Source: Escherichia coli phage phiS
Sequence record: PP449093.1
Length of the DNA: 64,000 bases
Strand: one strand, 5' to 3'
The notes beneath the pieces are model-generated. The model did no database searches and had not been told where the DNA came from. It saw only the letters and a program-made list of their open reading frames with translations. A program made the position numbers and the translations under genes. Below are positions 35,850 to 47,799 of this stretch, piece after piece; position 1 is the stretch's first letter; the number at the start of each line of letters is the position of its first letter.

Positions 35850-35918
35850 TAGTGAGGTGAATTAATCCTTCTTCTGGATACCTGATAAATAATGGTATAC
35901 AGAAAAGAGGATTTATTC

Positions 35919-36566
35919 ATGAACTTACAAAAACTACACGACGCAATCATAGAAAAAGCAAAGATGAGAGGAACCGTTGAAGGATATAAGGAAACACATC
36001 ACATTTTACCGCGATCTATGGGTGGCAGTGATGAAGTCGATAACCTGATTGATTTGACAGCAAAAGAACATTTTGTTATTCATCACCTGCTAGCAAAAAT
36101 TCATGGTGGACCTATGGCGCAAGCATTTGGTATGATGTGTTTGGCAAAAAATGCTAAGACCAATAAAAGAGATTATGTTGTTTCGTCTAGGGTATATGAA
36201 CAAGCTAGGGTACTGATATCTGAACAAAGAAAGGGTAAGCCTATGAAAGAAGAAACGCGAAGAAAGATTAGCGAATCTTCAAAGGGTGTATTGAAATCAG
36301 AAGAAACAAAAGCTAAAATGCGTAAACCAAAAACAAAGGAGCACGCGTTAAACATTTCAAAAGCTAGAATGGGAAGTAAAAATCCTATGTTTGGTAAACC
36401 ATCACCAACTAAAGGAATACCACATAGCGAGGAAATGAGAAAGCTGATTGCACAAAGGACAAAGGAAGCAACGATGGCAGATCCTTGTCCGCATTGCGGT
36501 AAAATTACCAATAAAGGCAATGCTCTACGATGGCACTTTGATAACTGTAAAATGAGGAATATGTGA
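35919..36566 (+). CDS. mobE: HNH homing endonuclease (MobE-like) between nrdA and nrdB
   Basis: HNH motif ETHHILPRSMGGSDEVDNLIDLTAKEH; C-terminal NUMOD-like repeats; same location as T4 mobE. Confidence 0.75.
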   Translation: MNLQKLHDAIIEKAKMRGTVEGYKETHHILPRSMGGSDEVDNLIDLTAKEHFVIHHLLAKIHGGPMAQAFGMMCLAKNAKTNKRDYVVSSRVYEQARVLISEQRKGKPMKEETRRKISESSKGVLKSEETKAKMRKPKTKEHALNISKARMGSKNPMFGKPSPTKGIPHSEEMRKLIAQRTKEATMADPCPHCGKITNKGNALRWHFDNCKMRNM

Positions 36567-37760
36567 ATGGGAAATACGGTATTTAATCGTGAACATGTTG
36601 ATATTATGAATGAACCGATGTTTCTGGGTAGCGGTTTAGGTATCGCTCGTTATGATATTCAGCGTCATCAAGTATTTGAAGAATTAATTGAAAAATCTCT
36701 GTCATTTTTCTGGCGTCCAGAAGAGATTTCACTTGCAACTGACCGCATTCAATATCTTAATATGGGTGACGTTGAAAAGCGTTTCTTTACTGAAAACTTG
36801 AAGTATCAGACATTACTTGATTCTATTCAAGGTCGCGCACCGTCCGCAGCATTTGGTCCAATTGTATCTGATCCAACTCTCGATACATGGTTACAAACAT
36901 GGACATTCAGCGAAACGATTCATAGCCGCAGTTATACTCACATTATGCGTAACTGTTTTATTGATCCGGCTAGTGAGTTCGACCAGATCATCGATAACCC
37001 TGCTATCATGAAGCGAGCGGAATCTATCGGGAAATATTATGATGATGTTCTTTATTGGATTCGTAAGTATGAGAATGCAAAAGAAGATCTCCGCTATTGG
37101 GAAGAAGAAGTTCTCCACCACTATTGGGAAGAACGAGACGATCAGACAGAATTAGATGATGCAAGAAGATTTTTTGAAGATACAAAACGAGATCTGATGG
37201 CTTCGATTTATCTGTGTGCACACTGCGTAAATGCACTGGAAGCAATTCGTTTTTATGTGTCCTTTGCATGTACTTTCAGCTTTGCCGAACGTGGTTTACT
37301 GGAAGGTAACGCGAAGATCATGAAATTTATTGCGCGTGATGAACAACTTCACTTAAAAGGCACACAATACATTATTCGTCAATGGCAAACGGGGGTTGAT
37401 GGTGATGAGTGGAAACAGATTGCGGAAGAACTTGAAGGCGAAGCAACGAAAATCTTTCTGGATGTTGTCGAGCAAGAAAAAGAATGGGTAGACCACCTAT
37501 TCGCAATGGGGGCAATTCCTAACCTGTCACCGGAAATTCTGAAAACCTATGTAGAATACCTGGCAGATTCCCGTATGCGCGCCGCCGGACTGAAAAGCCC
37601 GTTTAGTGTTCGTCGTCATCCGTTACCGTGGATGCGTAAATGGTTGAACTCTGACGAAGTACAGAATGCAGCGCAGGAAGTAGAGATTATGTATCTGGTA
37701 TCTCAGGTTAATACCGATTTAACAGACGACGACTACAACCGATTCGGGAAATATCTATGA
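36567..37760 (+). CDS. nrdB: aerobic ribonucleotide reductase small subunit, intron-less
   Basis: 397 aa; class Ia beta motifs (FFWRPEE, NLKYQTLLDSIQGR, WTFSETIHSRSYTHI, NALEAIRFYVSFAC.F.FAERG). Confidence 0.95.
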   Translation: MGNTVFNREHVDIMNEPMFLGSGLGIARYDIQRHQVFEELIEKSLSFFWRPEEISLATDRIQYLNMGDVEKRFFTENLKYQTLLDSIQGRAPSAAFGPIVSDPTLDTWLQTWTFSETIHSRSYTHIMRNCFIDPASEFDQIIDNPAIMKRAESIGKYYDDVLYWIRKYENAKEDLRYWEEEVLHHYWEERDDQTELDDARRFFEDTKRDLMASIYLCAHCVNALEAIRFYVSFACTFSFAERGLLEGNAKIMKFIARDEQLHLKGTQYIIRQWQTGVDGDEWKQIAEELEGEATKIFLDVVEQEKEWVDHLFAMGAIPNLSPEILKTYVEYLADSRMRAAGLKSPFSVRRHPLPWMRKWLNSDEVQNAAQEVEIMYLVSQVNTDLTDDDYNRFGKYL

Positions 37761-38233
37761 TATATTTTGTCGATTTAGATTTTACGATCACAGATCCAAC
37801 GCATCGACTAGCAAAGATGCCAACCGAAAATCTTGATAAAGTCGAGTCGTGGATCGAATATAACAAGGCATGTGGGGGAGATTCCCCCATTTACGATGTA
37901 ATTCGTGTTATTAATGCTCTTTCCGACAACGGGCATTTGATTTACATCCTCACCGGACGAAGTTCACATGCTTACATGGAAACAATTGATTGGTTAATTT
38001 CTAACGGGGTGTGTTTTGATAAAATCTTTATGAGAGGCCGTACCGATTCCCGTAAAGACTATCACATCAAATTAGAGGTAATTAAATCCTTTGATAAAGA
38101 TGAAGTTGTCGGAGTCTTTGAGGATAACCCAGAAGTGATTAAAGTTTTGCGTGAAAATGGTTATCGTGTCTTTGACGTAGGAAATCACAAAGATAAGACG
38201 CGAGCGGATATTGCAAATCACGGTCATGATTAA
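37757..38233 (+). CDS. HAD-superfamily phosphatase (stand-alone, resembles the Pnk phosphatase domain)
   Basis: DLDFT (DxDxT), ILTGR, K, FEDNPEV motifs; aligns by eye with the C-terminal domain of the Pnk at 41735. Confidence 0.6.
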   Translation: MIYFVDLDFTITDPTHRLAKMPTENLDKVESWIEYNKACGGDSPIYDVIRVINALSDNGHLIYILTGRSSHAYMETIDWLISNGVCFDKIFMRGRTDSRKDYHIKLEVIKSFDKDEVVGVFEDNPEVIKVLRENGYRVFDVGNHKDKTRADIANHGHD

Positions 38234-38244
38234 TGTTTGTTCAA

Positions 38245-38270
38245 AGTCGCCCATAGTGGCGACTTTTTTT
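38245..38270 (+). terminator. rho-independent terminator
   Basis: AGTCGCC-CATAGTG-GCGACT followed by TTTTTTT. Confidence 0.7.
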
Positions 38271-38281
38271 GTTATTGGGTG

Positions 38282-38310
38282 TTGACAATCGGATCGTGGT
38301 ATAGCATAAT
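38282..38310 (+). promoter_or_regulatory. early promoter cassette (TTGACA, 17 nt spacer, CATAAT)
   Basis: Conserved GCACCCATCGAAACGGAGGA leader. Confidence 0.65.
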
Positions 38311-38334
38311 GCACCCATCGAAACGGAGGAACAT

Positions 38335-38553
38335 ATGGAAACAGAAGAACAAGTCATTGCATATTTTCATCGTAAAAAGATGAAACTTAGAATCGAAAAA
38401 CAGTACATCAATCACTACATTGACCAAGTTCACTTAACAAGTACACCTTACCTATTCCGGTTGATAAACCCTAGAAAACGGTGGGAGAAGTTGGATAGAA
38501 ACACAAAAATAATTGATAAGCTCACCCAATGGTGGAATGAATACAACAAGTAA
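38335..38553 (+). CDS. hypothetical early protein (72 aa)
   Basis: ORF after promoter cassette. Confidence 0.6.
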   Translation: METEEQVIAYFHRKKMKLRIEKQYINHYIDQVHLTSTPYLFRLINPRKRWEKLDRNTKIIDKLTQWWNEYNK

Positions 38554-38560
38554 AAAGTAG

Positions 38561-38589
38561 TTGACACTGAATAACGGGGGTAGTAAGAT
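38561..38589 (+). promoter_or_regulatory. early promoter cassette with GGGGGTAGTAAGATACTCCC hairpin
   Basis: TTGACA, 17 nt spacer, TAAGAT. Confidence 0.65.
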
Positions 38590-38622
38590 ACTCCCATCGA
38601 AACGAAACAAAGGAGAATCAAA

Positions 38623-38841
38623 ATGAAATTTACTTGCACCGACTCTATCAACAAACACTTTGTAGTGGGCGAAGTATACGAATCTACTACTATTCGTCAA
38701 CGTGACCTGATGGGTCGCCTTTACAATCAGCCAGTATTCATTATTGGTGAAGAATTGTTCTACATTGAAAACCGTCCGTGGGTTGCTTTCAATAAACGAG
38801 GACGCAAGGTAGCAAAATTCGAACTTGTCATTAAAAAGTAG
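38623..38841 (+). CDS. hypothetical early protein (72 aa)
   Basis: ORF after promoter cassette. Confidence 0.6.
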   Translation: MKFTCTDSINKHFVVGEVYESTTIRQRDLMGRLYNQPVFIIGEELFYIENRPWVAFNKRGRKVAKFELVIKK

Positions 38842-38870
38842 TTGACAGCATATCACGGGAGTAGTAAGAT
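38842..38870 (+). promoter_or_regulatory. early promoter cassette with GGGAGTAGTAAGATACTCCC hairpin
   Basis: TTGACA, 17 nt spacer, TAAGAT. Confidence 0.65.
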
Positions 38871-38903
38871 ACTCCCATACCAAAACAACTAAGGAGTATC
38901 AAG

Positions 38904-39302
38904 ATGATTAAATTTCAAACTCGCAAAGACGTTCTGGACTTCGTTAAAGTTTTCGGTTACGCTGCATTGCAACATGCAATGGACAAAATGACCATCTCCC
39001 CAGATCAGACTATGCTGATCCGTATGGTTAAAGCAACCGCCTACAAAAACGACATTACCCTCTCAGAAATCAACGACGGTAATACTGTCCGCGAGGTAAT
39101 TGTTTCTTTCGAATCACCGAAAATTGGCGGTTTTCATACCACGATGTTAGGTGAAATCACTGTCACTGTATACGGGCAAGGTGGCGGAGTGTTTACCGTC
39201 AAAGAAGCAATGGAAAATGGAACGCTGAACAAAGAAAAACTGGAATTTGTCCTGAAAATCATCAAGGAGCGTAACGAAGCTCGCGATATTCTGGAAAGTT
39301 AA
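38904..39302 (+). CDS. hypothetical early protein (132 aa)
   Basis: ORF after promoter cassette. Confidence 0.6.
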   Translation: MIKFQTRKDVLDFVKVFGYAALQHAMDKMTISPDQTMLIRMVKATAYKNDITLSEINDGNTVREVIVSFESPKIGGFHTTMLGEITVTVYGQGGGVFTVKEAMENGTLNKEKLEFVLKIIKERNEARDILES

Positions 39303-39309
39303 TAAGGTG

Positions 39310-39335
39310 GGCGGGAGAAATCCCGCCTTTGTTGT
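39310..39335 (+). terminator. terminator-like hairpin
   Basis: GGCGGGA-GAAA-TCCCGCC followed by TTTGTTGT. Confidence 0.55.
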
Positions 39336-39352
39336 GACGTGAGGAAAGGATA

Positions 39353-39814
39353 ATGATTAATGAGCTAATAGAAAACTATGGATTCGTTAAATATTCATGT
39401 TTAGAGTGTAAAGATGGTGATGTGATTCTACCGCCTCAGAAGAACCGTTTAAATGTTCTTTACGCTATTGTTGTTGATGATGAACTGGTATACATTGGTC
39501 AGACTGTTAATCTCAGAAAGCGGATCAATTATTACCGGACTAGCATTAACAGACAAACACCAACAGCGGATACTCGCAAGAGTAAGAATATTCATAAGGC
39601 GCTAGAGGAAGGTAAGACAGTAACATTCTATTACCGACAGTGCTTTGAGTTGTACATCGAGAATCCAACGGGTAAGGATATTATAAGCACTGCCGATATC
39701 GAAGAACCTGTTTTGATCACCAAATTTAAACCAGAATGGAACACAAATTATGTCAACAAAAGAAAACAACAAAAAAGTTTTAGCATTGTTCAAAAATCTG
39801 ATGGTACTATGTGA
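39353..39814 (+). CDS. denA: endonuclease II
   Basis: Resembles T4 DenA (YAI...DELVYIG.T.NLRKRINYYRT.INR, EG..V.FY.RQCF). Confidence 0.85.
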   Translation: MINELIENYGFVKYSCLECKDGDVILPPQKNRLNVLYAIVVDDELVYIGQTVNLRKRINYYRTSINRQTPTADTRKSKNIHKALEEGKTVTFYYRQCFELYIENPTGKDIISTADIEEPVLITKFKPEWNTNYVNKRKQQKSFSIVQKSDGTM

Positions 39815-40919
39815 CGGATCTGATACGTTCTATTACAAAGATGAAATTACGGCGATGCAAACCCGTATGCGCATTTTTAGCTATCTGTACTTGAGCAAAC
39901 CGGAAATGTGGAATAAACCAGATGCGTTAGAGTGTCGCGGGATCATGTTTGAAATTGACGATAAAGGTCGTCCGGTCCGCATCGCATCTCGTCCTATGGA
40001 GAAGTTTTTTAATTTGGGTGAGAATGATCGCGCTCGCTTTAAGCCGGAAGATGTGGAAATGGTCATGGACAAAATGGACGGTAGTCTAGTAAGTACATAC
40101 ATTGATAACGGCTATGTTCAGTTGAAGTCTAAAGCGGCCTTGTACTCAAGCCAGGCAGAGAGAGCAAACGGTCTTCTGTATTCAGAGAAGTATGCGGATC
40201 TACGCGCTAAGATTGCTGATATTGGGTCTGATTATACTTTCAACTTTGAATATACAGCGCCCAGCAACCGAATTGTTGTAGAATATTCTGAACCGTCGCT
40301 AACACTTCTGAATGTACGCCATAACGTCACAGGAGAGTATGTACCGCATCAAATGCTATTCGCTGATGCAATCCTACGTCCTCATCTGGTAAATGCGTTA
40401 CAGGTTGATTCAGCGCGTTTTAGCAATATTCTTGATGAAGTTCGGATCGCAGAAGGTATCGAAGGAATTGTTGCACGCACTAAAGACGGTCAAATGTTCA
40501 AAGTGAAGAGTGAATGGTATATTGGTGTGCATAACATTAAAAACACATCGATGTTTCCTAATAACCTGATCTACTATGTAGTAGAAAGTGAAACCGATGA
40601 TTTGCGTGCTGCATATGAAGGCGAACCGGAAGCACTGGAACGAATCGAGCTATTCGAGGAAGCATTCAGGTCTATTCTTCGCAATGCCTTCACGACAGCA
40701 ACAGAATTTTATAACGCACACGCGGGAGAAGACAGAAAGACATATGCATCCAATGCGACTATCGAATCACGTAAACATGGTGATGCACAAGCATATATTT
40801 TCATGTGTCTGATGATTGCATTTGATGGTCTTGATTATGACCGTATTCTGGATTCAATGAAAACTTACTATCTACGGAATTATAAGAAACTGATTCCGGC
40901 TGATAAGATTGATTGGTAA
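39750..40919 (+). CDS. rnlA: RNA ligase 1 (T4 gene 63 type)
   Basis: RIFSY.Y, PDALECRGIMFE, RIASRPMEKFFNL.EN, KxDGSLVSTY nucleotidyl-transferase motif; exact start uncertain, overlaps denA. Confidence 0.8.
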   Translation: MSTKENNKKVLALFKNLMVLCDGSDTFYYKDEITAMQTRMRIFSYLYLSKPEMWNKPDALECRGIMFEIDDKGRPVRIASRPMEKFFNLGENDRARFKPEDVEMVMDKMDGSLVSTYIDNGYVQLKSKAALYSSQAERANGLLYSEKYADLRAKIADIGSDYTFNFEYTAPSNRIVVEYSEPSLTLLNVRHNVTGEYVPHQMLFADAILRPHLVNALQVDSARFSNILDEVRIAEGIEGIVARTKDGQMFKVKSEWYIGVHNIKNTSMFPNNLIYYVVESETDDLRAAYEGEPEALERIELFEEAFRSILRNAFTTATEFYNAHAGEDRKTYASNATIESRKHGDAQAYIFMCLMIAFDGLDYDRILDSMKTYYLRNYKKLIPADKIDW

Positions 40920-40925
40920 TAATAA

Positions 40926-40948
40926 GCGGGGCTAGTTCCCGCCTTTTG
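40926..40948 (+). terminator. terminator-like hairpin
   Basis: GCGGG-GCTAGTT-CCCGC followed by CTTTTGTC. Confidence 0.5.
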
Positions 40949-40962
40949 TCGTTGGGGGTAAT

Positions 40963-41286
40963 ATGTCAAAGCTGATATACATTGTTATCATCTCTGTCTT
41001 GCTAGGGGTAGGTGGTAATATGTGGTGGGAAAATAAAAAGGAGGTAGATCGACTGAATCAGGAATTTACAGAGTATAAGAAAAAGACAGATGAAAAGATG
41101 AAGATTGTAGACTCGCTACAAAAGGAGATGTACGGAATAAGAACTAAGTTTGCAGAAGAACAAAACAAAGCAATGAAAGACGCTACACGAGGCTATGTAG
41201 TAGCACAAAAACCCAAGTTGGTAGAGAAACAGCTTAATGACTCATTTAAGGAGTTTACCGAAGAATTAAAGGAGGCTACTAAATGA
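40963..41286 (+). CDS. inner-membrane spanin candidate (Rz-like)
   Basis: N-terminal TM segment then coiled-coil-rich periplasmic region; immediately upstream of a lipoprotein ORF and pseT, as T4 pseT.3. Confidence 0.55.
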   Translation: MSKLIYIVIISVLLGVGGNMWWENKKEVDRLNQEFTEYKKKTDEKMKIVDSLQKEMYGIRTKFAEEQNKAMKDATRGYVVAQKPKLVEKQLNDSFKEFTEELKEATK

Positions 41287-41735
41287 GCATAGAAATATTG
41301 CATACACAAGATCAGATAAGCAATTTTAATCTGGTTGATTATCTGGGGATAGGTGCAAGCATTATTATCCTGATGGTGTTTTCAATTTTCGTGATACACT
41401 GGATGTTTAAGAAAGCACATAAGAATTTTCAGACCGCCATAATCCATGTCTTCGCTGTGCCTATTGTATTTGCGCTTTCTTCGTGTACACTGGACCATTA
41501 TTCACAGGAACCGAAATTACATCCTCCACTACCAGCACCAATAGAAAAAGTTGACATTGACCTGAAAGTGGATACAATAGACGGTAAACCTAGAGTTTCT
41601 ATGTCGTGGGAGGACTCCCAAAAATTCAGAGTCTGGCTTGCGGATATTAAGAGATATACACTTGAAAGTAAGTTGATCATGTGTTATTATCGAAAAGAAC
41701 TTAATGAGGAACGGTGCAAACCGAAGGAGAAATAA
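41283..41735 (+). CDS. outer-membrane spanin candidate (lipoprotein; alternative start 41403)
   Basis: Internal Met at 41403 gives signal peptide plus lipobox ALSSC and a Pro-rich mature region; the longer frame from 41283 adds an N-terminal TM segment. Confidence 0.5.
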   Translation: MSIEILHTQDQISNFNLVDYLGIGASIIILMVFSIFVIHWMFKKAHKNFQTAIIHVFAVPIVFALSSCTLDHYSQEPKLHPPLPAPIEKVDIDLKVDTIDGKPRVSMSWEDSQKFRVWLADIKRYTLESKLIMCYYRKELNEERCKPKEK

Positions 41736-42613
41736 TGCCGAAATGTGAAGTGATTTTAACCGTTGGTTGTTCTGGGTCCGGTAAAACTACATGGGCTATG
41801 GAAACGTGTAAACGGTTTAGTAATTATCGTAATGTGAATCGCGATGATCTTCGTCTTATGTTGTTTGGTGTTGACTCACATTTGAAATACAAGTATACTA
41901 AGGAAAAAGAAAAACTGGTAGAGTCTATTCAGAGAATGATTGCTCGTGAGACTCTATCACGCGGTTTGAGTATCATTATCTCCGATACCAACCTGAAAGA
42001 AAAACATCGTGTATTCTACAAAGAACTTGCAAAAGAATTTAACGCGGTGTATACTGAACAAGTGTTCAATGAACCGTTTGAGACACTAAAGAAACGTAAT
42101 TTCTATCGCGGCGAGAAAGCAATTCCACTTTCTCATTTGCGTAACCAATTTTATCTGATGCAGGAATATATGGGTCAAGAAGTATACAAACCGAATACCA
42201 TGCTGCCGAAGGCAGTGATCTTTGATATTGATGGAACATTAGCGGATAAGGGCGGTCGTCATCCGTTTGACTGGACAAAGGTCAAAGAAGATAAACCTCG
42301 TCCGCAAGTGATCGAAATGCTTAAACTGTATCGTGATAATGGCTATCGTATCATTACATGCTCAGGGCGTGAGGATGTTTGCGAAGAAGATACTCTGCAA
42401 TGGTTGCGTGAACAGGGTATTGAACCGAGTGATCACTTTCAACGTGAAACTAATGATCGTCGTCCTGATCATGAAGTGAAGAAAGAGATTTTCTTCTCTG
42501 AAATTGCACCGCGTTATCATGTTGTGTTGGCAGTAGATGATCGTGATCAAGTGGTTGACATGTACCGCTCAATTGGTGTAGAATGTTTTCAGGTTAACTA
42601 CGGAGACTTTTAA
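41735..42613 (+). CDS. pseT: polynucleotide 5 prime-kinase / 3 prime-phosphatase
   Basis: P-loop GCSGSGKTT, NRDD, then HAD domain AVIFDIDGTLA...SGRE...DDRDQVV; resembles T4 Pnk; ATG after AAGGAGA. Confidence 0.9.
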   Translation: MPKCEVILTVGCSGSGKTTWAMETCKRFSNYRNVNRDDLRLMLFGVDSHLKYKYTKEKEKLVESIQRMIARETLSRGLSIIISDTNLKEKHRVFYKELAKEFNAVYTEQVFNEPFETLKKRNFYRGEKAIPLSHLRNQFYLMQEYMGQEVYKPNTMLPKAVIFDIDGTLADKGGRHPFDWTKVKEDKPRPQVIEMLKLYRDNGYRIITCSGREDVCEEDTLQWLREQGIEPSDHFQRETNDRRPDHEVKKEIFFSEIAPRYHVVLAVDDRDQVVDMYRSIGVECFQVNYGDF

Positions 42614-43344: not shown

Positions 43345-43657
43345 ACAAATTGATAATATCGCACTTCGTGAAGCACTCAAGAAAATGTTTTCGGTCGGTA
43401 CTCACTCTTTGCAGTTTACTAAGAAAGATGGTACTGTCCGTGAGATGATCGCCACGCGAGATCCGGCACTGATGCCGTTTGAAACATACGAAAAGTGGTT
43501 AGTTCCTAATGTTGAAAAACCGCGTAAAGAATCAGAAACATCTTTGCCAGTATATGAAATTGCAGTTGAAGGTTTCCGTAGTTTTGGGCTTGATAGTCTG
43601 ATTAATGTAGATGGATTGACTCCAGCGCAGATCATCGAAATGTACGGTGGTAGTTGA
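43337..43657 (+). CDS. hypothetical protein (106 aa)
   Basis: ATG inside ORF-track 43331..43657 (track start TTG). Confidence 0.5.
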   Translation: MTEQIDNIALREALKKMFSVGTHSLQFTKKDGTVREMIATRDPALMPFETYEKWLVPNVEKPRKESETSLPVYEIAVEGFRSFGLDSLINVDGLTPAQIIEMYGGS

Positions 43658-43659
43658 CA

Positions 43660-44271
43660 ATGGAAATAAAAGATGATAATATCATATTACCAGCACCGGA
43701 AGAATGGAGACAAGCTGTAGGTTATCCGTGGTATGAAATCTCTAATTATGGTAGATTGAGATCTATTGACCGAAATATCGAATTTTATAGAGAAGTTTCT
43801 CCTGGTAATATTAAGCTAGTAAAACAAAAACGTGCTGGTAAAATAATAAAACCGATTTTAGACCGATATGGGTATTATTATTCAACACTGTCAAAACAAA
43901 AAGACAATGGTAAAATCTCAGTTAAAGCCGAAAAGATACATCGACTTGTAGCAAATGCATTTCTAGGAGACGTTACCGGACTGGAGGTTAACCACATCAA
44001 TGGTGTAAAAACCTGCAATTATGTGTGGAATTTAGAAATAGTAACCTTACTAGAAAATATGAGACATTCATTTAGAACTGGACTCAATAACAATGTTGGT
44101 GAAAACCACTCACGGGCAAAACTGACAAATGCGCAAGTCGAAGAAATAATGCGACTCAAAGGAAAGGTTAAGAAGCAAATTATAGCCGATATGTTTAATG
44201 TTTCTTATTGTTGTATAGCGCAAATACATTCTGGTCTGCGGCGAAATCCAAAGGTCGCTAAATATAAATAA
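43660..44271 (+). CDS. HNH homing endonuclease (NUMOD4/HNH_3-like)
   Basis: WYEISNYGRLRS and VNHINGVKTCNYVWNLEIVT motifs. Confidence 0.7.
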   Translation: MEIKDDNIILPAPEEWRQAVGYPWYEISNYGRLRSIDRNIEFYREVSPGNIKLVKQKRAGKIIKPILDRYGYYYSTLSKQKDNGKISVKAEKIHRLVANAFLGDVTGLEVNHINGVKTCNYVWNLEIVTLLENMRHSFRTGLNNNVGENHSRAKLTNAQVEEIMRLKGKVKKQIIADMFNVSYCCIAQIHSGLRRNPKVAKYK

Positions 44272-47387: not shown

Positions 47388-47555
47388 ATGTTCCAGACTA
47401 AAGCAGAATGCGAAGCATACATTGTAGCAAACCACGGTGAAGACTACCTGAAATTCGATATCGTAGTAGCACAGAAGATCACCGGAATGGTTGCAAAATA
47501 TCTGGGTGTTAAAGAAGGTTACTATCCAAGCAACGCACCAGAAATTAACAAATAA
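47388..47555 (+). CDS. hypothetical early protein (55 aa), paralog of 50645..50812
   Basis: MFQTKAECEAYIVANHGEDYLKFDIVVAQKI... against MFETKAACEAYIIETYGEDYLKFDIVVAQKI... Confidence 0.55.
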   Translation: MFQTKAECEAYIVANHGEDYLKFDIVVAQKITGMVAKYLGVKEGYYPSNAPEINK

Positions 47556-47558
47556 TAG

Positions 47559-47587
47559 TTGACAATGATTAAAGGGAGTAGTAAGAT
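47559..47587 (+). promoter_or_regulatory. early promoter cassette with GGGAGTAGTAAGATACTCCC hairpin
   Basis: TTGACA, 17 nt spacer, TAAGAT. Confidence 0.65.
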
Positions 47588-47619
47588 ACTCCCATAAAGA
47601 CAACAAACGGAGAATCAAA

Positions 47620-47799
47620 ATGAAAGCTATCGAAGTTCAGAAGTACATGGAACTCATCATTGAAGGTAAAGCACATACAGTATTGACTACCCACGTAGGA
47701 TATGATAAAAATGTGCATATGCTGGTAGACAATATCGGTTGGATGAAGTTTAATCCTAACGAGAATGTACAAGCTCAAGAAATGACCATCCCTTTCTAA
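47620..47799 (+). CDS. hypothetical early protein (59 aa)
   Basis: ATG after GGAGAATCAAA; below ORF-track cutoff. Confidence 0.5.
   Translation: MKAIEVQKYMELIIEGKAHTVLTTHVGYDKNVHMLVDNIGWMKFNPNENVQAQEMTIPF

Follow-up and report, generated by a model that had tools for sequence, protein, structure and literature searches.

We analysed a 64,000-nucleotide stretch of the genome of Escherichia coli phage phiS (sequence record PP449093.1; hereafter the window) and focused on positions 37757-42613, where a first-pass annotation had described clustered RNA-repair genes: a stand-alone HAD phosphatase, an RNA ligase 1 (Rnl1, encoded by rnlA) and a polynucleotide kinase/phosphatase (Pnk, encoded by pseT). 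The three genes were correctly identified. Their open reading frames (ORFs) are intact and lie on the plus strand where they had been placed, and their products score above the cut-offs of the respective family profiles. Over its full length, the stretch 37757-42613 shares 98.0-98.6% nucleotide identity with RB49 and the other top-listed Krischvirus coliphage genomes. It is matched at 95-99% by 58 records, of which 57 cover at least 80% of it. The phage belongs to the T4-type myoviruses, genus Krischvirus (RB49-like), and the region is a conserved early-gene block. HAD, rnlA and pseT have all been annotated previously in RB49 and in dozens of relatives and are thus already known. As detailed below, we consider it likely that this conserved T4-type block combines a canonical rnlA-pseT pair with a horizontally acquired HAD 3'-phosphatase, for which a role in DNA or nucleotide metabolism is likelier than one in tRNA repair.

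The ligase is recognized by Pfam RNA_lig_T4_1 (PF09511; 73.4 bits, cut-off 28.3), by the Rnl1-specific C-terminal domain T4_Rnl1_C (PF20819; 114.5 bits, cut-off 27) and by the NCBIfam equivalog TIGR02308 "T4 RnlA family" (611.6 bits, cut-off 242.25), and no Rnl2 family matched it among the Pfam, PHROG and NCBIfam results. It is 43% identical to T4 Rnl1, and the lysine of motif I (KxDG) in its nucleotidyltransferase domain, K108, corresponds to K99 of the T4 enzyme. In a pairwise map, nine T4 Rnl1 positions are identical in the ligase (K108, D110, G111, R63, K85, E167, E238, K251, and K253). Their T4 counterparts are K99, D101, G102, R54, K75, E159, E227, K240, and K242, residues addressed in mutational studies of T4 Rnl1. 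Judged from profiles and residues, the ligase belongs to the Rnl1 class, as had been proposed, and agrees with the T4 RnlA family on every point examined. A tblastn search with T4 RnlB revealed no Rnl2 homologue in the 64-kb window, and ARAGORN found 0 tRNA genes across it. The rnlA ORF overlaps the 3' end of denA by 65 nucleotides (39750-39814). The alignment with T4 Rnl1 begins at residue 13 of the ORF, and the real start of rnlA may lie downstream of the first ATG.

The Pnk ORF (41714-42613) opens at a GTG at 41714, and the ATG at 41735 is the likely start. Its product matches Pfam AAA_33 (P-loop kinase) and HAD_PNKP (E 1.2e-52) and aligns with T4 Pnkp over the full length at 44% identity. 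The roles of the T4 Pnkp residues and the mechanism of the T4 enzyme have been described (PMC3592404). In a residue map against T4, Pnk keeps the kinase residues K15, D35, R38, and R126 as well as all phosphatase residues, among them the counterparts of T4 Pnkp D165, D167, S211, K258, and D278 (PMC3592404). By these features Pnk is a bifunctional T4-type Pnkp, in which an N-terminal P-loop kinase (GxxGxGK[ST]) is fused to a C-terminal DxDxT phosphatase. Since all catalytic residues checked in the T4 tRNA-repair pair are kept in the two window proteins, rnlA and pseT look like a functional, canonical pair. Because of their orthology and the conservation of all catalytic residues, Rnl1 and Pnk would be expected to work in the same way as their T4 counterparts. 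Once an anticodon nuclease has cut, they would heal the resulting 2',3'-cyclic phosphate and 5'-OH termini, with the kinase domain of Pnk phosphorylating the 5'-OH, and Rnl1 would seal the break.

The first-pass annotation had interpreted the closeness of ligase and Pnk as a concentration of the tRNA-repair pathway into one locus, assuming that gene 63 of T4 lies far from pseT. The two genes are indeed within 1 kb of each other in the window, with 815 bp between the end of rnlA and the start of pseT, but the assumption about T4 is false. In T4 (NC_000866), rnlA (136340-137464) and pseT (134002-134907) are separated by a gap of only 1432 bp, which holds just alc, pseT.3, pseT.2, and pseT.1. The complete T4 order is nrdA, mobE, nrdB.1, nrdB, denA, rnlA, alc, pseT.3, pseT.2, pseT.1, pseT, cd.5-cd.1, cd, and the annotated order in RB49 (NC_005066) is frd, td, nrdA, three small ORFs, nrdB, RB49p229, four small hypothetical ORFs, denA, rnlA, pseT.3, pseT.2, pseT, cd.2, cd. 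The window matches T4 in the order and orientation of nrdA-nrdB-denA-rnlA-pseT.3-pseT.2-pseT-cd, and in both phages spanin genes lie between rnlA and pseT. Counterparts of T4 alc and pseT.1 are missing between rnlA and pseT of the window, where the gap is correspondingly 815 instead of 1432 bp. Because the window is syntenic with T4, the pathway is not newly concentrated here; the proximity of rnlA and pseT is T4-type synteny inherited from a common ancestor with T4. Furthermore, the genes found between HAD, rnlA, and pseT (three small ORFs of unknown function, denA, and two spanin genes) are not RNA-repair genes. The rnlA-pseT neighbourhood is textbook T4 genome organisation, and as originally stated the finding matters little.

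Only the HAD protein really sets this block apart from T4. In T4, nrdB and denA are 3 bases apart, whereas in the window they are separated by the HAD gene plus three small ORFs. The end of the HAD gene is 1516 bp from the start of rnlA, and pseT follows 3.5 kb downstream of the HAD gene.

The HAD protein scores 50.6 bits against Pfam HAD_PNKP (cut-off 27.6) and matches PHROG phrog_415 at E 2.9e-51. Its proposed resemblance to the phosphatase domain of Pnk is real; identity to the C-terminus of the Pnk that phiS itself encodes is 29%. The DxDxT motif reads D6-L-D8-F-T10, so that both DxD aspartates are present. Neither of the two outcomes that the first-pass annotation had named as refuting, absent DxD aspartates and an Rnl2-type ligase, was thus observed. 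In alignments with T4 Pnkp and with the Pnk of phiS, the equivalents of the T4 Pnkp residues D165, D167, T169, S211, K258, D278, and D277 are D6, D8, T10, T66, K105, D123, and E122, respectively, and those of the Pnkp-specific residues R176, R213, R246, D250, and D254 are R17, R68, R93, D97, and D101. Among these T4 residues, R176, R213, D254, and D277 are essential. The equivalents of R176, R213, and D254 are invariant in the alignment of the stand-alone family. The exchange of D277 for glutamate is conservative, and glutamate is found at this position in 11 of 59 family members. Of the T4 Pnkp active-site residues compared, R279 is the only one whose equivalent the HAD protein does not retain. 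By analogy with T4 Pnkp, D6 is predicted to be the nucleophile and D8 the acid/base, T66 and K105 are predicted to bind the phosphate, and D123 (with E122) to be a Mg2+ ligand. Catalysis would then proceed through an aspartyl-phosphate intermediate on D6, with Mg2+ held by D6 and D123.

An AlphaFold2 model of the HAD protein, built with a 59-sequence alignment, reached a predicted local distance difference test score (pLDDT) of 92.5. In a fold search with this model, the two closest solved structures were Pnkp1 and T4 Pnkp, while class B and C acid phosphatases (e(P4), AphA) ranked behind Pnkp with scores of 11.5-13.4. A PDB search by sequence returned only a marginal match, to Pnkp1 (E 0.011). 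The phosphatase domains of T4 Pnkp (PDB 1LTQ, 5UJ0) and Capnocytophaga Pnkp1 (PDB 4XRP) are 21-24% identical to the HAD protein, which differs from both in having no fused kinase, in an extra helix after motif I and in the lost R279 equivalent. The extra helix is part of an insert of ~14 residues that follows the R176 equivalent (residues ~21-41), for which a helix at 29-41 is predicted, with W32 invariant and N36 near-invariant. This insert is absent in Pnkp and common to the stand-alone family. Against Pfam HAD_SAK_1 the protein stays under the cut-off (19.8 bits, cut-off 25.6), and it is thus not a "Swiss-army-knife" stand-alone HAD, a group that has been distinguished from the PNK-HAD family (PMC7824862). 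Taken together, the HAD protein looks like a catalytically competent phosphatase of the Pnkp DxDxT type. No P-loop kinase family matched its 158 residues in Pfam, PHROG, or NCBIfam, and because the kinase domain is absent, the label "polynucleotide kinase" is wrong. This label is widespread for the protein and for many of its phage relatives.

The closest relatives of the HAD protein are stand-alone proteins of T1-like siphophages (Drexlerviridae; E. coli, Klebsiella), with 41-47% identity compared to the 29% seen with the phage's own Pnk. Likewise, phrog_415, which holds stand-alone proteins, gives 175 bits, whereas phrog_505, which holds bifunctional Pnkp, gives 73 bits. We considered that HAD might be a duplicate of the pseT phosphatase domain and rejected this on the identity values, the PHROG scores and the insert common to the stand-alone family. 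On this comparison, the HAD gene appears to have been acquired horizontally, with its nearest relatives in T1-like siphophages. The stand-alone PNK-HADs of Drexlerviridae and phiKMV-like podophages (phrog_415) are ~160-200 amino acids long and have the same insert and the same invariant residues as HAD. RB49p229 (NP_891800), annotated as "polynucleotide kinase", is the RB49 version of the HAD gene, occupies the identical position and does not differ substantially; other Krischvirus orthologues are annotated as "3'-phosphatase". Outside phages, yeast Tpp1 is a eukaryotic stand-alone DNA 3'-phosphatase, a PNKP-type HAD without a kinase domain that is homologous to the phosphatase domain of PNKP, and we propose it as a functional analogue of the HAD protein.

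In a tblastn search, the HAD protein found matches in 1475 phage records, a number that includes the fused Pnkp phosphatase domains of T4-like phages. Two Pnkp-type phosphatase matches per record occurred in ~66 of these, 58 of which are Krischvirus, and the presence of Pnkp together with a stand-alone PNK-HAD is characteristic of this genus. When 1.84 billion cluster representatives were searched with a profile, 460 clusters (50% identity) reached E<=1e-30, and almost all of the 150 top matches are 140-210 amino acids long. In a set of 5.8 billion proteins, 217 matches were obtained with a 7-sequence alignment and 3 with a single sequence. According to comparative work, PNK-HAD is usually fused to a kinase (PMC7824862). 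The stand-alone phage PNK-HAD family is nevertheless very large, occurs in small phages and is routinely misnamed.

These data also bear on whether HAD could be a remnant that is decaying or has no function, be it a kinase-less partial duplicate of pseT or a passenger gene. Its misannotation as "polynucleotide kinase" despite the lack of a kinase domain could be read in this way, as could its position next to a hyperplastic region flanked by promoter-in-stem-loop (PeSL) cassettes. However, all catalytic residues are retained and the fold is predicted with confidence, the protein is at least 95% identical across 58 phage records (Krischvirus), an 82%-identical relative carries the same motifs, and HAD resembles the stand-alone family more closely than it does any Pnkp. 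This conservation effectively rules out a pseudogene or a decayed domain, and we find the idea of a remnant barely credible.

What the stand-alone proteins are associated with in other phages was examined by counting neighbours within 6 kb of the relatives' genes at 80 IMG/VR loci. These loci are the best-scoring ones, redundant, dominated by few phage groups and non-independent. A deoxynucleoside monophosphate (dNMP) kinase lies near PNK-HAD at 31 of the 80 loci, at 27 of them no more than 1 kb downstream. A metallophosphoesterase exonuclease of phrog_704 was found at 26 loci, every time directly upstream, and a dGTP/dATP diphosphohydrolase at 13, every time directly downstream. As for RNA-repair neighbours, Rnl1 occurred at one locus, Rnl2 at none, and a Pnk kinase at two.

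Individual genomes illustrate these arrangements. In Klebsiella phage Sanco and Vibrio phage JSF38, PNK-HAD lies directly between a phrog_704 "DNA repair exonuclease" and a phrog_139 dNMP kinase, which in JSF38 is followed by an ATP-dependent DNA ligase. In E. coli phage tunzivis, a dNMP kinase is encoded five genes downstream of PNK-HAD. On the upstream side, the closest ORF of larger size (297 amino acids) has no family match, and a "putative phosphoesterase" is annotated ~11 kb off. Pectobacterium phage PPWS2 and Ralstonia phage Reminis carry a dATP/dGTP diphosphohydrolase after PNK-HAD, and upstream of it a metallophosphoesterase (PPWS2) or an unannotated 374-amino-acid protein (Reminis), then endonuclease VII. 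Vibrio phage Vp_R1 shows a further context, NADAR-HAD, and a P1-like phage another, pmgS-HAD. Using tblastn, we detected no Rnl1, Rnl2, or Pnk kinase in the complete genomes of JSF38 and PPWS2 or in tunzivis (bases 1-50,000 of 50,596), and Rnl1 homologues in the phage collection are found almost exclusively in large genomes.

Two neighbours in T1-like phages were considered as possible RNA-repair proteins. The P-loop neighbour as part of a split polynucleotide kinase was rejected, since it matches the dNMP kinases of phrog_139 at E 5e-48 and has no similarity to Pnk kinase. The 376-amino-acid upstream neighbour as an RNA ligase was rejected as well, since it matches the metallophosphoesterase exonucleases of phrog_704. 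As a separate observation, T1-like siphophages and phiKMV-like podophages share a recurrent module of an exonuclease, PNK-HAD, and a dNMP kinase or dATP/dGTP diphosphohydrolase, sometimes with a DNA ligase (module loci in Table 1). In the literature, we found no experimental description of the exonuclease/PNK-HAD/dNMP-kinase module.

The association of the family is with DNA and nucleotide metabolism, not with RNA ligation, and the conserved exonuclease, dNMP kinase and deoxynucleoside triphosphate (dNTP) diphosphohydrolase neighbours point to the former over RNA repair as the field in which stand-alone PNK-HADs act. This is consistent with two published observations: in vitro, T4 Pnkp is active on 3'-phosphate ends of DNA and also on 3'-dNMPs, which it hydrolyses at 24 per second (PMC3592404), and T1-type phages break down the DNA of their host and recycle the nucleotides (PMC11447400).

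In phiS, the HAD gene directly follows nrdB. Its start codon overlaps the TGA stop of nrdB (ATGA; cTATGAta, 37757-37760), an overlap that suggests translational coupling. The consensus signals listed in Table 1, three terminator-like hairpins with promoter-like sites between them, are suggestive of three units, namely nrd plus HAD, denA-rnlA, and pseT.3-pseT.2-pseT-cd. HAD would thus close the nrd unit and is probably co-expressed with nrdB.

The first-pass annotation had assigned HAD to the tRNA-repair pathway, as a possibly redundant or specialised phosphatase. It would then be a second 3'-end healer that clears 2',3'-cyclic, 3'-, or 2'-phosphates from RNA cleaved by anticodon nucleases of the host, ready for sealing by Rnl1, and it might serve lesions or conditions that are poorly handled by the Pnk tetramer. 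Fold and catalytic residues are those of the phosphatases of two RNA-repair systems, and HAD phosphatases have been described as the usual removers of linear phosphates in phage RNA repair (PMC7824862). The gene is also located upstream of both rnlA (1.5 kb) and pseT, HAD and Pnk co-occur genus-wide with both present in 58 records, and the lineage-specific changes by motif I (G9F; LHLL to LAKM) could signal an altered substrate. Beyond the fold, however, we found nothing in favour of the assignment: the HAD start codon overlaps nrdB, relatives are present in phages in which Rnl1, Rnl2, and Pnk kinase are undetectable, and Rnl1 turned up at a single one of the 80 loci. The phosphatase domain of the phage's own Pnk is fully intact and therefore leaves no gap for HAD in RNA repair. 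The HAD gene is apparently coupled to nrdB and separated from rnlA and pseT by terminator-like hairpins (consensus matches), its closeness to rnlA is explained by insertion into what is already an nrdB-denA-rnlA block in T4, and RNA ligases or polynucleotide kinases are hardly ever encoded near members of the stand-alone family. We regard a second end healer as rather unlikely, and HAD is probably not a member dedicated to the tRNA-repair pathway.

The neighbours of the gene, nrdB in phiS and a dNMP kinase or dNTP diphosphohydrolase in other phages, would also suit a mononucleotide phosphatase, a nucleotidase resembling class B/C acid phosphatases that tunes nucleotide pools together with ribonucleotide reductase and is inactive on polynucleotide ends. 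The HAD protein is barely under the cut-off of Pfam Acid_phosphat_B (26.4 bits, cut-off 27), class B/C nucleotidases come next after Pnkp among its structural matches, and the helical insert with W32 sits at the position of the HAD caps that, as we infer, favour small substrates. The turnover of 3'-dNMPs by T4 Pnkp would also fit such an activity. On the other hand, the equivalents of the Pnkp-specific residues R176, R213, and D254 are invariant, and dephosphorylation of dNMPs beside a dNMP kinase would constitute a futile cycle. A pure nucleotidase thus seems quite unlikely to us.

We favour a phosphatase that serves DNA or nucleotide metabolism. HAD would remove 3'-phosphates from DNA ends or from 3'-deoxynucleotides, and would thereby contribute to host-DNA breakdown, nucleotide salvage, or the clean-up and repair of DNA ends. 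DNA 3'-phosphate ends and 3'-deoxynucleotides are its most likely substrates, a choice that comes from genomic context only, because our literature search found no experimental work on any member of the stand-alone family or on a Krischvirus phosphatase. Several points weigh against this interpretation. At 36 of the 80 loci, which as mentioned are best-scoring and non-independent, none of the neighbour types searched for was present. NrdB is a neighbour at 0 of the 80 other loci, so the nrdB-HAD junction is Krischvirus-specific. Both closest solved structures come from RNA-repair enzymes, and chemistry in vitro and fold cannot separate a DNA or nucleotide role from one in RNA repair. Promoters and terminators were called solely from consensus matches. 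Finally, the Krischvirus protein differs from the family at four near-invariant positions after motif I, and its substrate may differ as well.

These four changes are G9F, H19A, L20K, and L21M, which convert DxDGT to DLDFT and RLHLLP to RLAKMP. The proteins of Drexlerviridae and phiKMV-like phages have G9 and LHLL where Krischvirus HAD has F9 and LAKM, and their genes have an exonuclease on one side and a dNMP kinase or dNTP diphosphohydrolase on the other, whereas the Krischvirus gene follows nrdB. The changes beside motif I are also present in the 82%-identical relative, which is metagenomic. Because they are located in the flap/cap region that sets the substrate choice of HAD proteins, a substrate shift in the genus is possible. 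With a slim chance of being correct, one could go further and suppose that Krischvirus HAD has been re-tuned through G9F and LHLL to LAKM into a specialised end-healing or anti-defence phosphatase, and that the common exonuclease/PNK-HAD/dNMP-kinase module represents an undescribed pathway for 3'-phosphate DNA ends in the recycling of host genomes. Such an enzyme might, for example, strip off 2'- or 3'-phosphates that result from cleavage by host RNases or DNases and lie beyond the reach of the Pnk tetramer, or destroy a phosphorylated defence signal. If this were true, the genus would have a two-phosphatase repair system.

Table 1. Genes and predicted expression signals at the nrdB-pseT region of the phiS window, and loci of the exonuclease/PNK-HAD module
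Feature	Position	Strand	Evidence
nrdB, ribonucleotide reductase small subunit	36567..37760	+	ORF list; RB49 annotation
Stand-alone Pnkp-type HAD (DxDxT) phosphatase, 158 amino acids, without kinase domain	37757..38233	+	
Terminator-like hairpin, 9-bp stem and T-run	38243-38266	+	Consensus scan; begins ten bases past HAD stop
Early-promoter-like site TTGACA-17-CATAAT	38282-38310	+	Consensus match
Three small early ORFs, function unknown	38335-38553, 38623-38841, 38904-39302	+	phrog_18672, phrog_14957, phrog_10173
Terminator-like hairpin after 132-amino-acid ORF	39309..39328	+	Consensus scan
denA, GIY-YIG endonuclease II, host-DNA breakdown	39353..39814	+	Pfam GIY-YIG; phrog_1111; RB49 and T4 annotation
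rnlA, RNA ligase 1 (T4 gene 63 class), 389 amino acids	39750..40919	+	Pfam; TIGR02308; T4 Rnl1 identity; residue map
Terminator-like hairpin after rnlA	40926..40942	+	Consensus scan
pseT.3, i-spanin	40963-41286	+	phrog_739 / phrog_812 "Rz-like spanin" (pair with pseT.2); RB49 and T4 annotation
pseT.2, o-spanin	41283-41735	+	phrog_739 / phrog_812 "Rz-like spanin" (pair with pseT.3); RB49 and T4 annotation
pseT, bifunctional polynucleotide 5'-kinase / 3'-phosphatase, 292 amino acids	41735..42613	+	Pfam; T4 Pnkp identity; residue map
Module loci in other phages	L004 4820-7055; L007 2828-6133; L008 3009-4992; L015 2844-5034		

Downstream of the HAD gene, one copy of an 80-bp repeat stands in front of the second small ORF and another in front of the third; each copy has a stem-loop that encloses an early-promoter-like sequence. 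Repeats of ~80 bp are found at 38540-38622, 38821-38903, and 47540-47625 and contain TTGACA and a TAAGAT -10 box within a GGGAGTA/TACTCCC stem-loop. They are PeSL promoter-terminator cassettes of the type described for RB49 and phi1 (PMC2839356), a study that makes no mention of the HAD gene. The RB49 gene RB49p226, a 50-amino-acid ORF, is absent from the window; the break-points lie within PeSL repeats, and the region is variable.

The pseT.2 o-spanin ORF encodes 150 amino acids in the window compared to 99 in T4, and the match to the spanin profile is limited to residues 53-150. After an internal methionine (Met41) come a segment resembling a signal peptide and a lipobox (LSSC), and residues 1-40 contribute an additional hydrophobic segment upstream, which makes the true start of pseT.2 uncertain.

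Two HNH endonuclease ORFs border the region. The second, of 205 amino acids (43654-44271, plus strand, phrog_59), lies between a 31.1-like ORF and gene 31, which encodes a GroES-like co-chaperonin, and the corresponding stretch (window 43645-44262) is missing in RB49. The first, a 224-amino-acid HNH homing-endonuclease ORF (35892-36566, plus strand, phrog_655), lies immediately 5' of nrdB within a 712-bp segment (window 35867-36578) that is likewise missing in RB49. In T4, the slot between nrdA and nrdB is also occupied by an HNH endonuclease, but by a different one, mobE.

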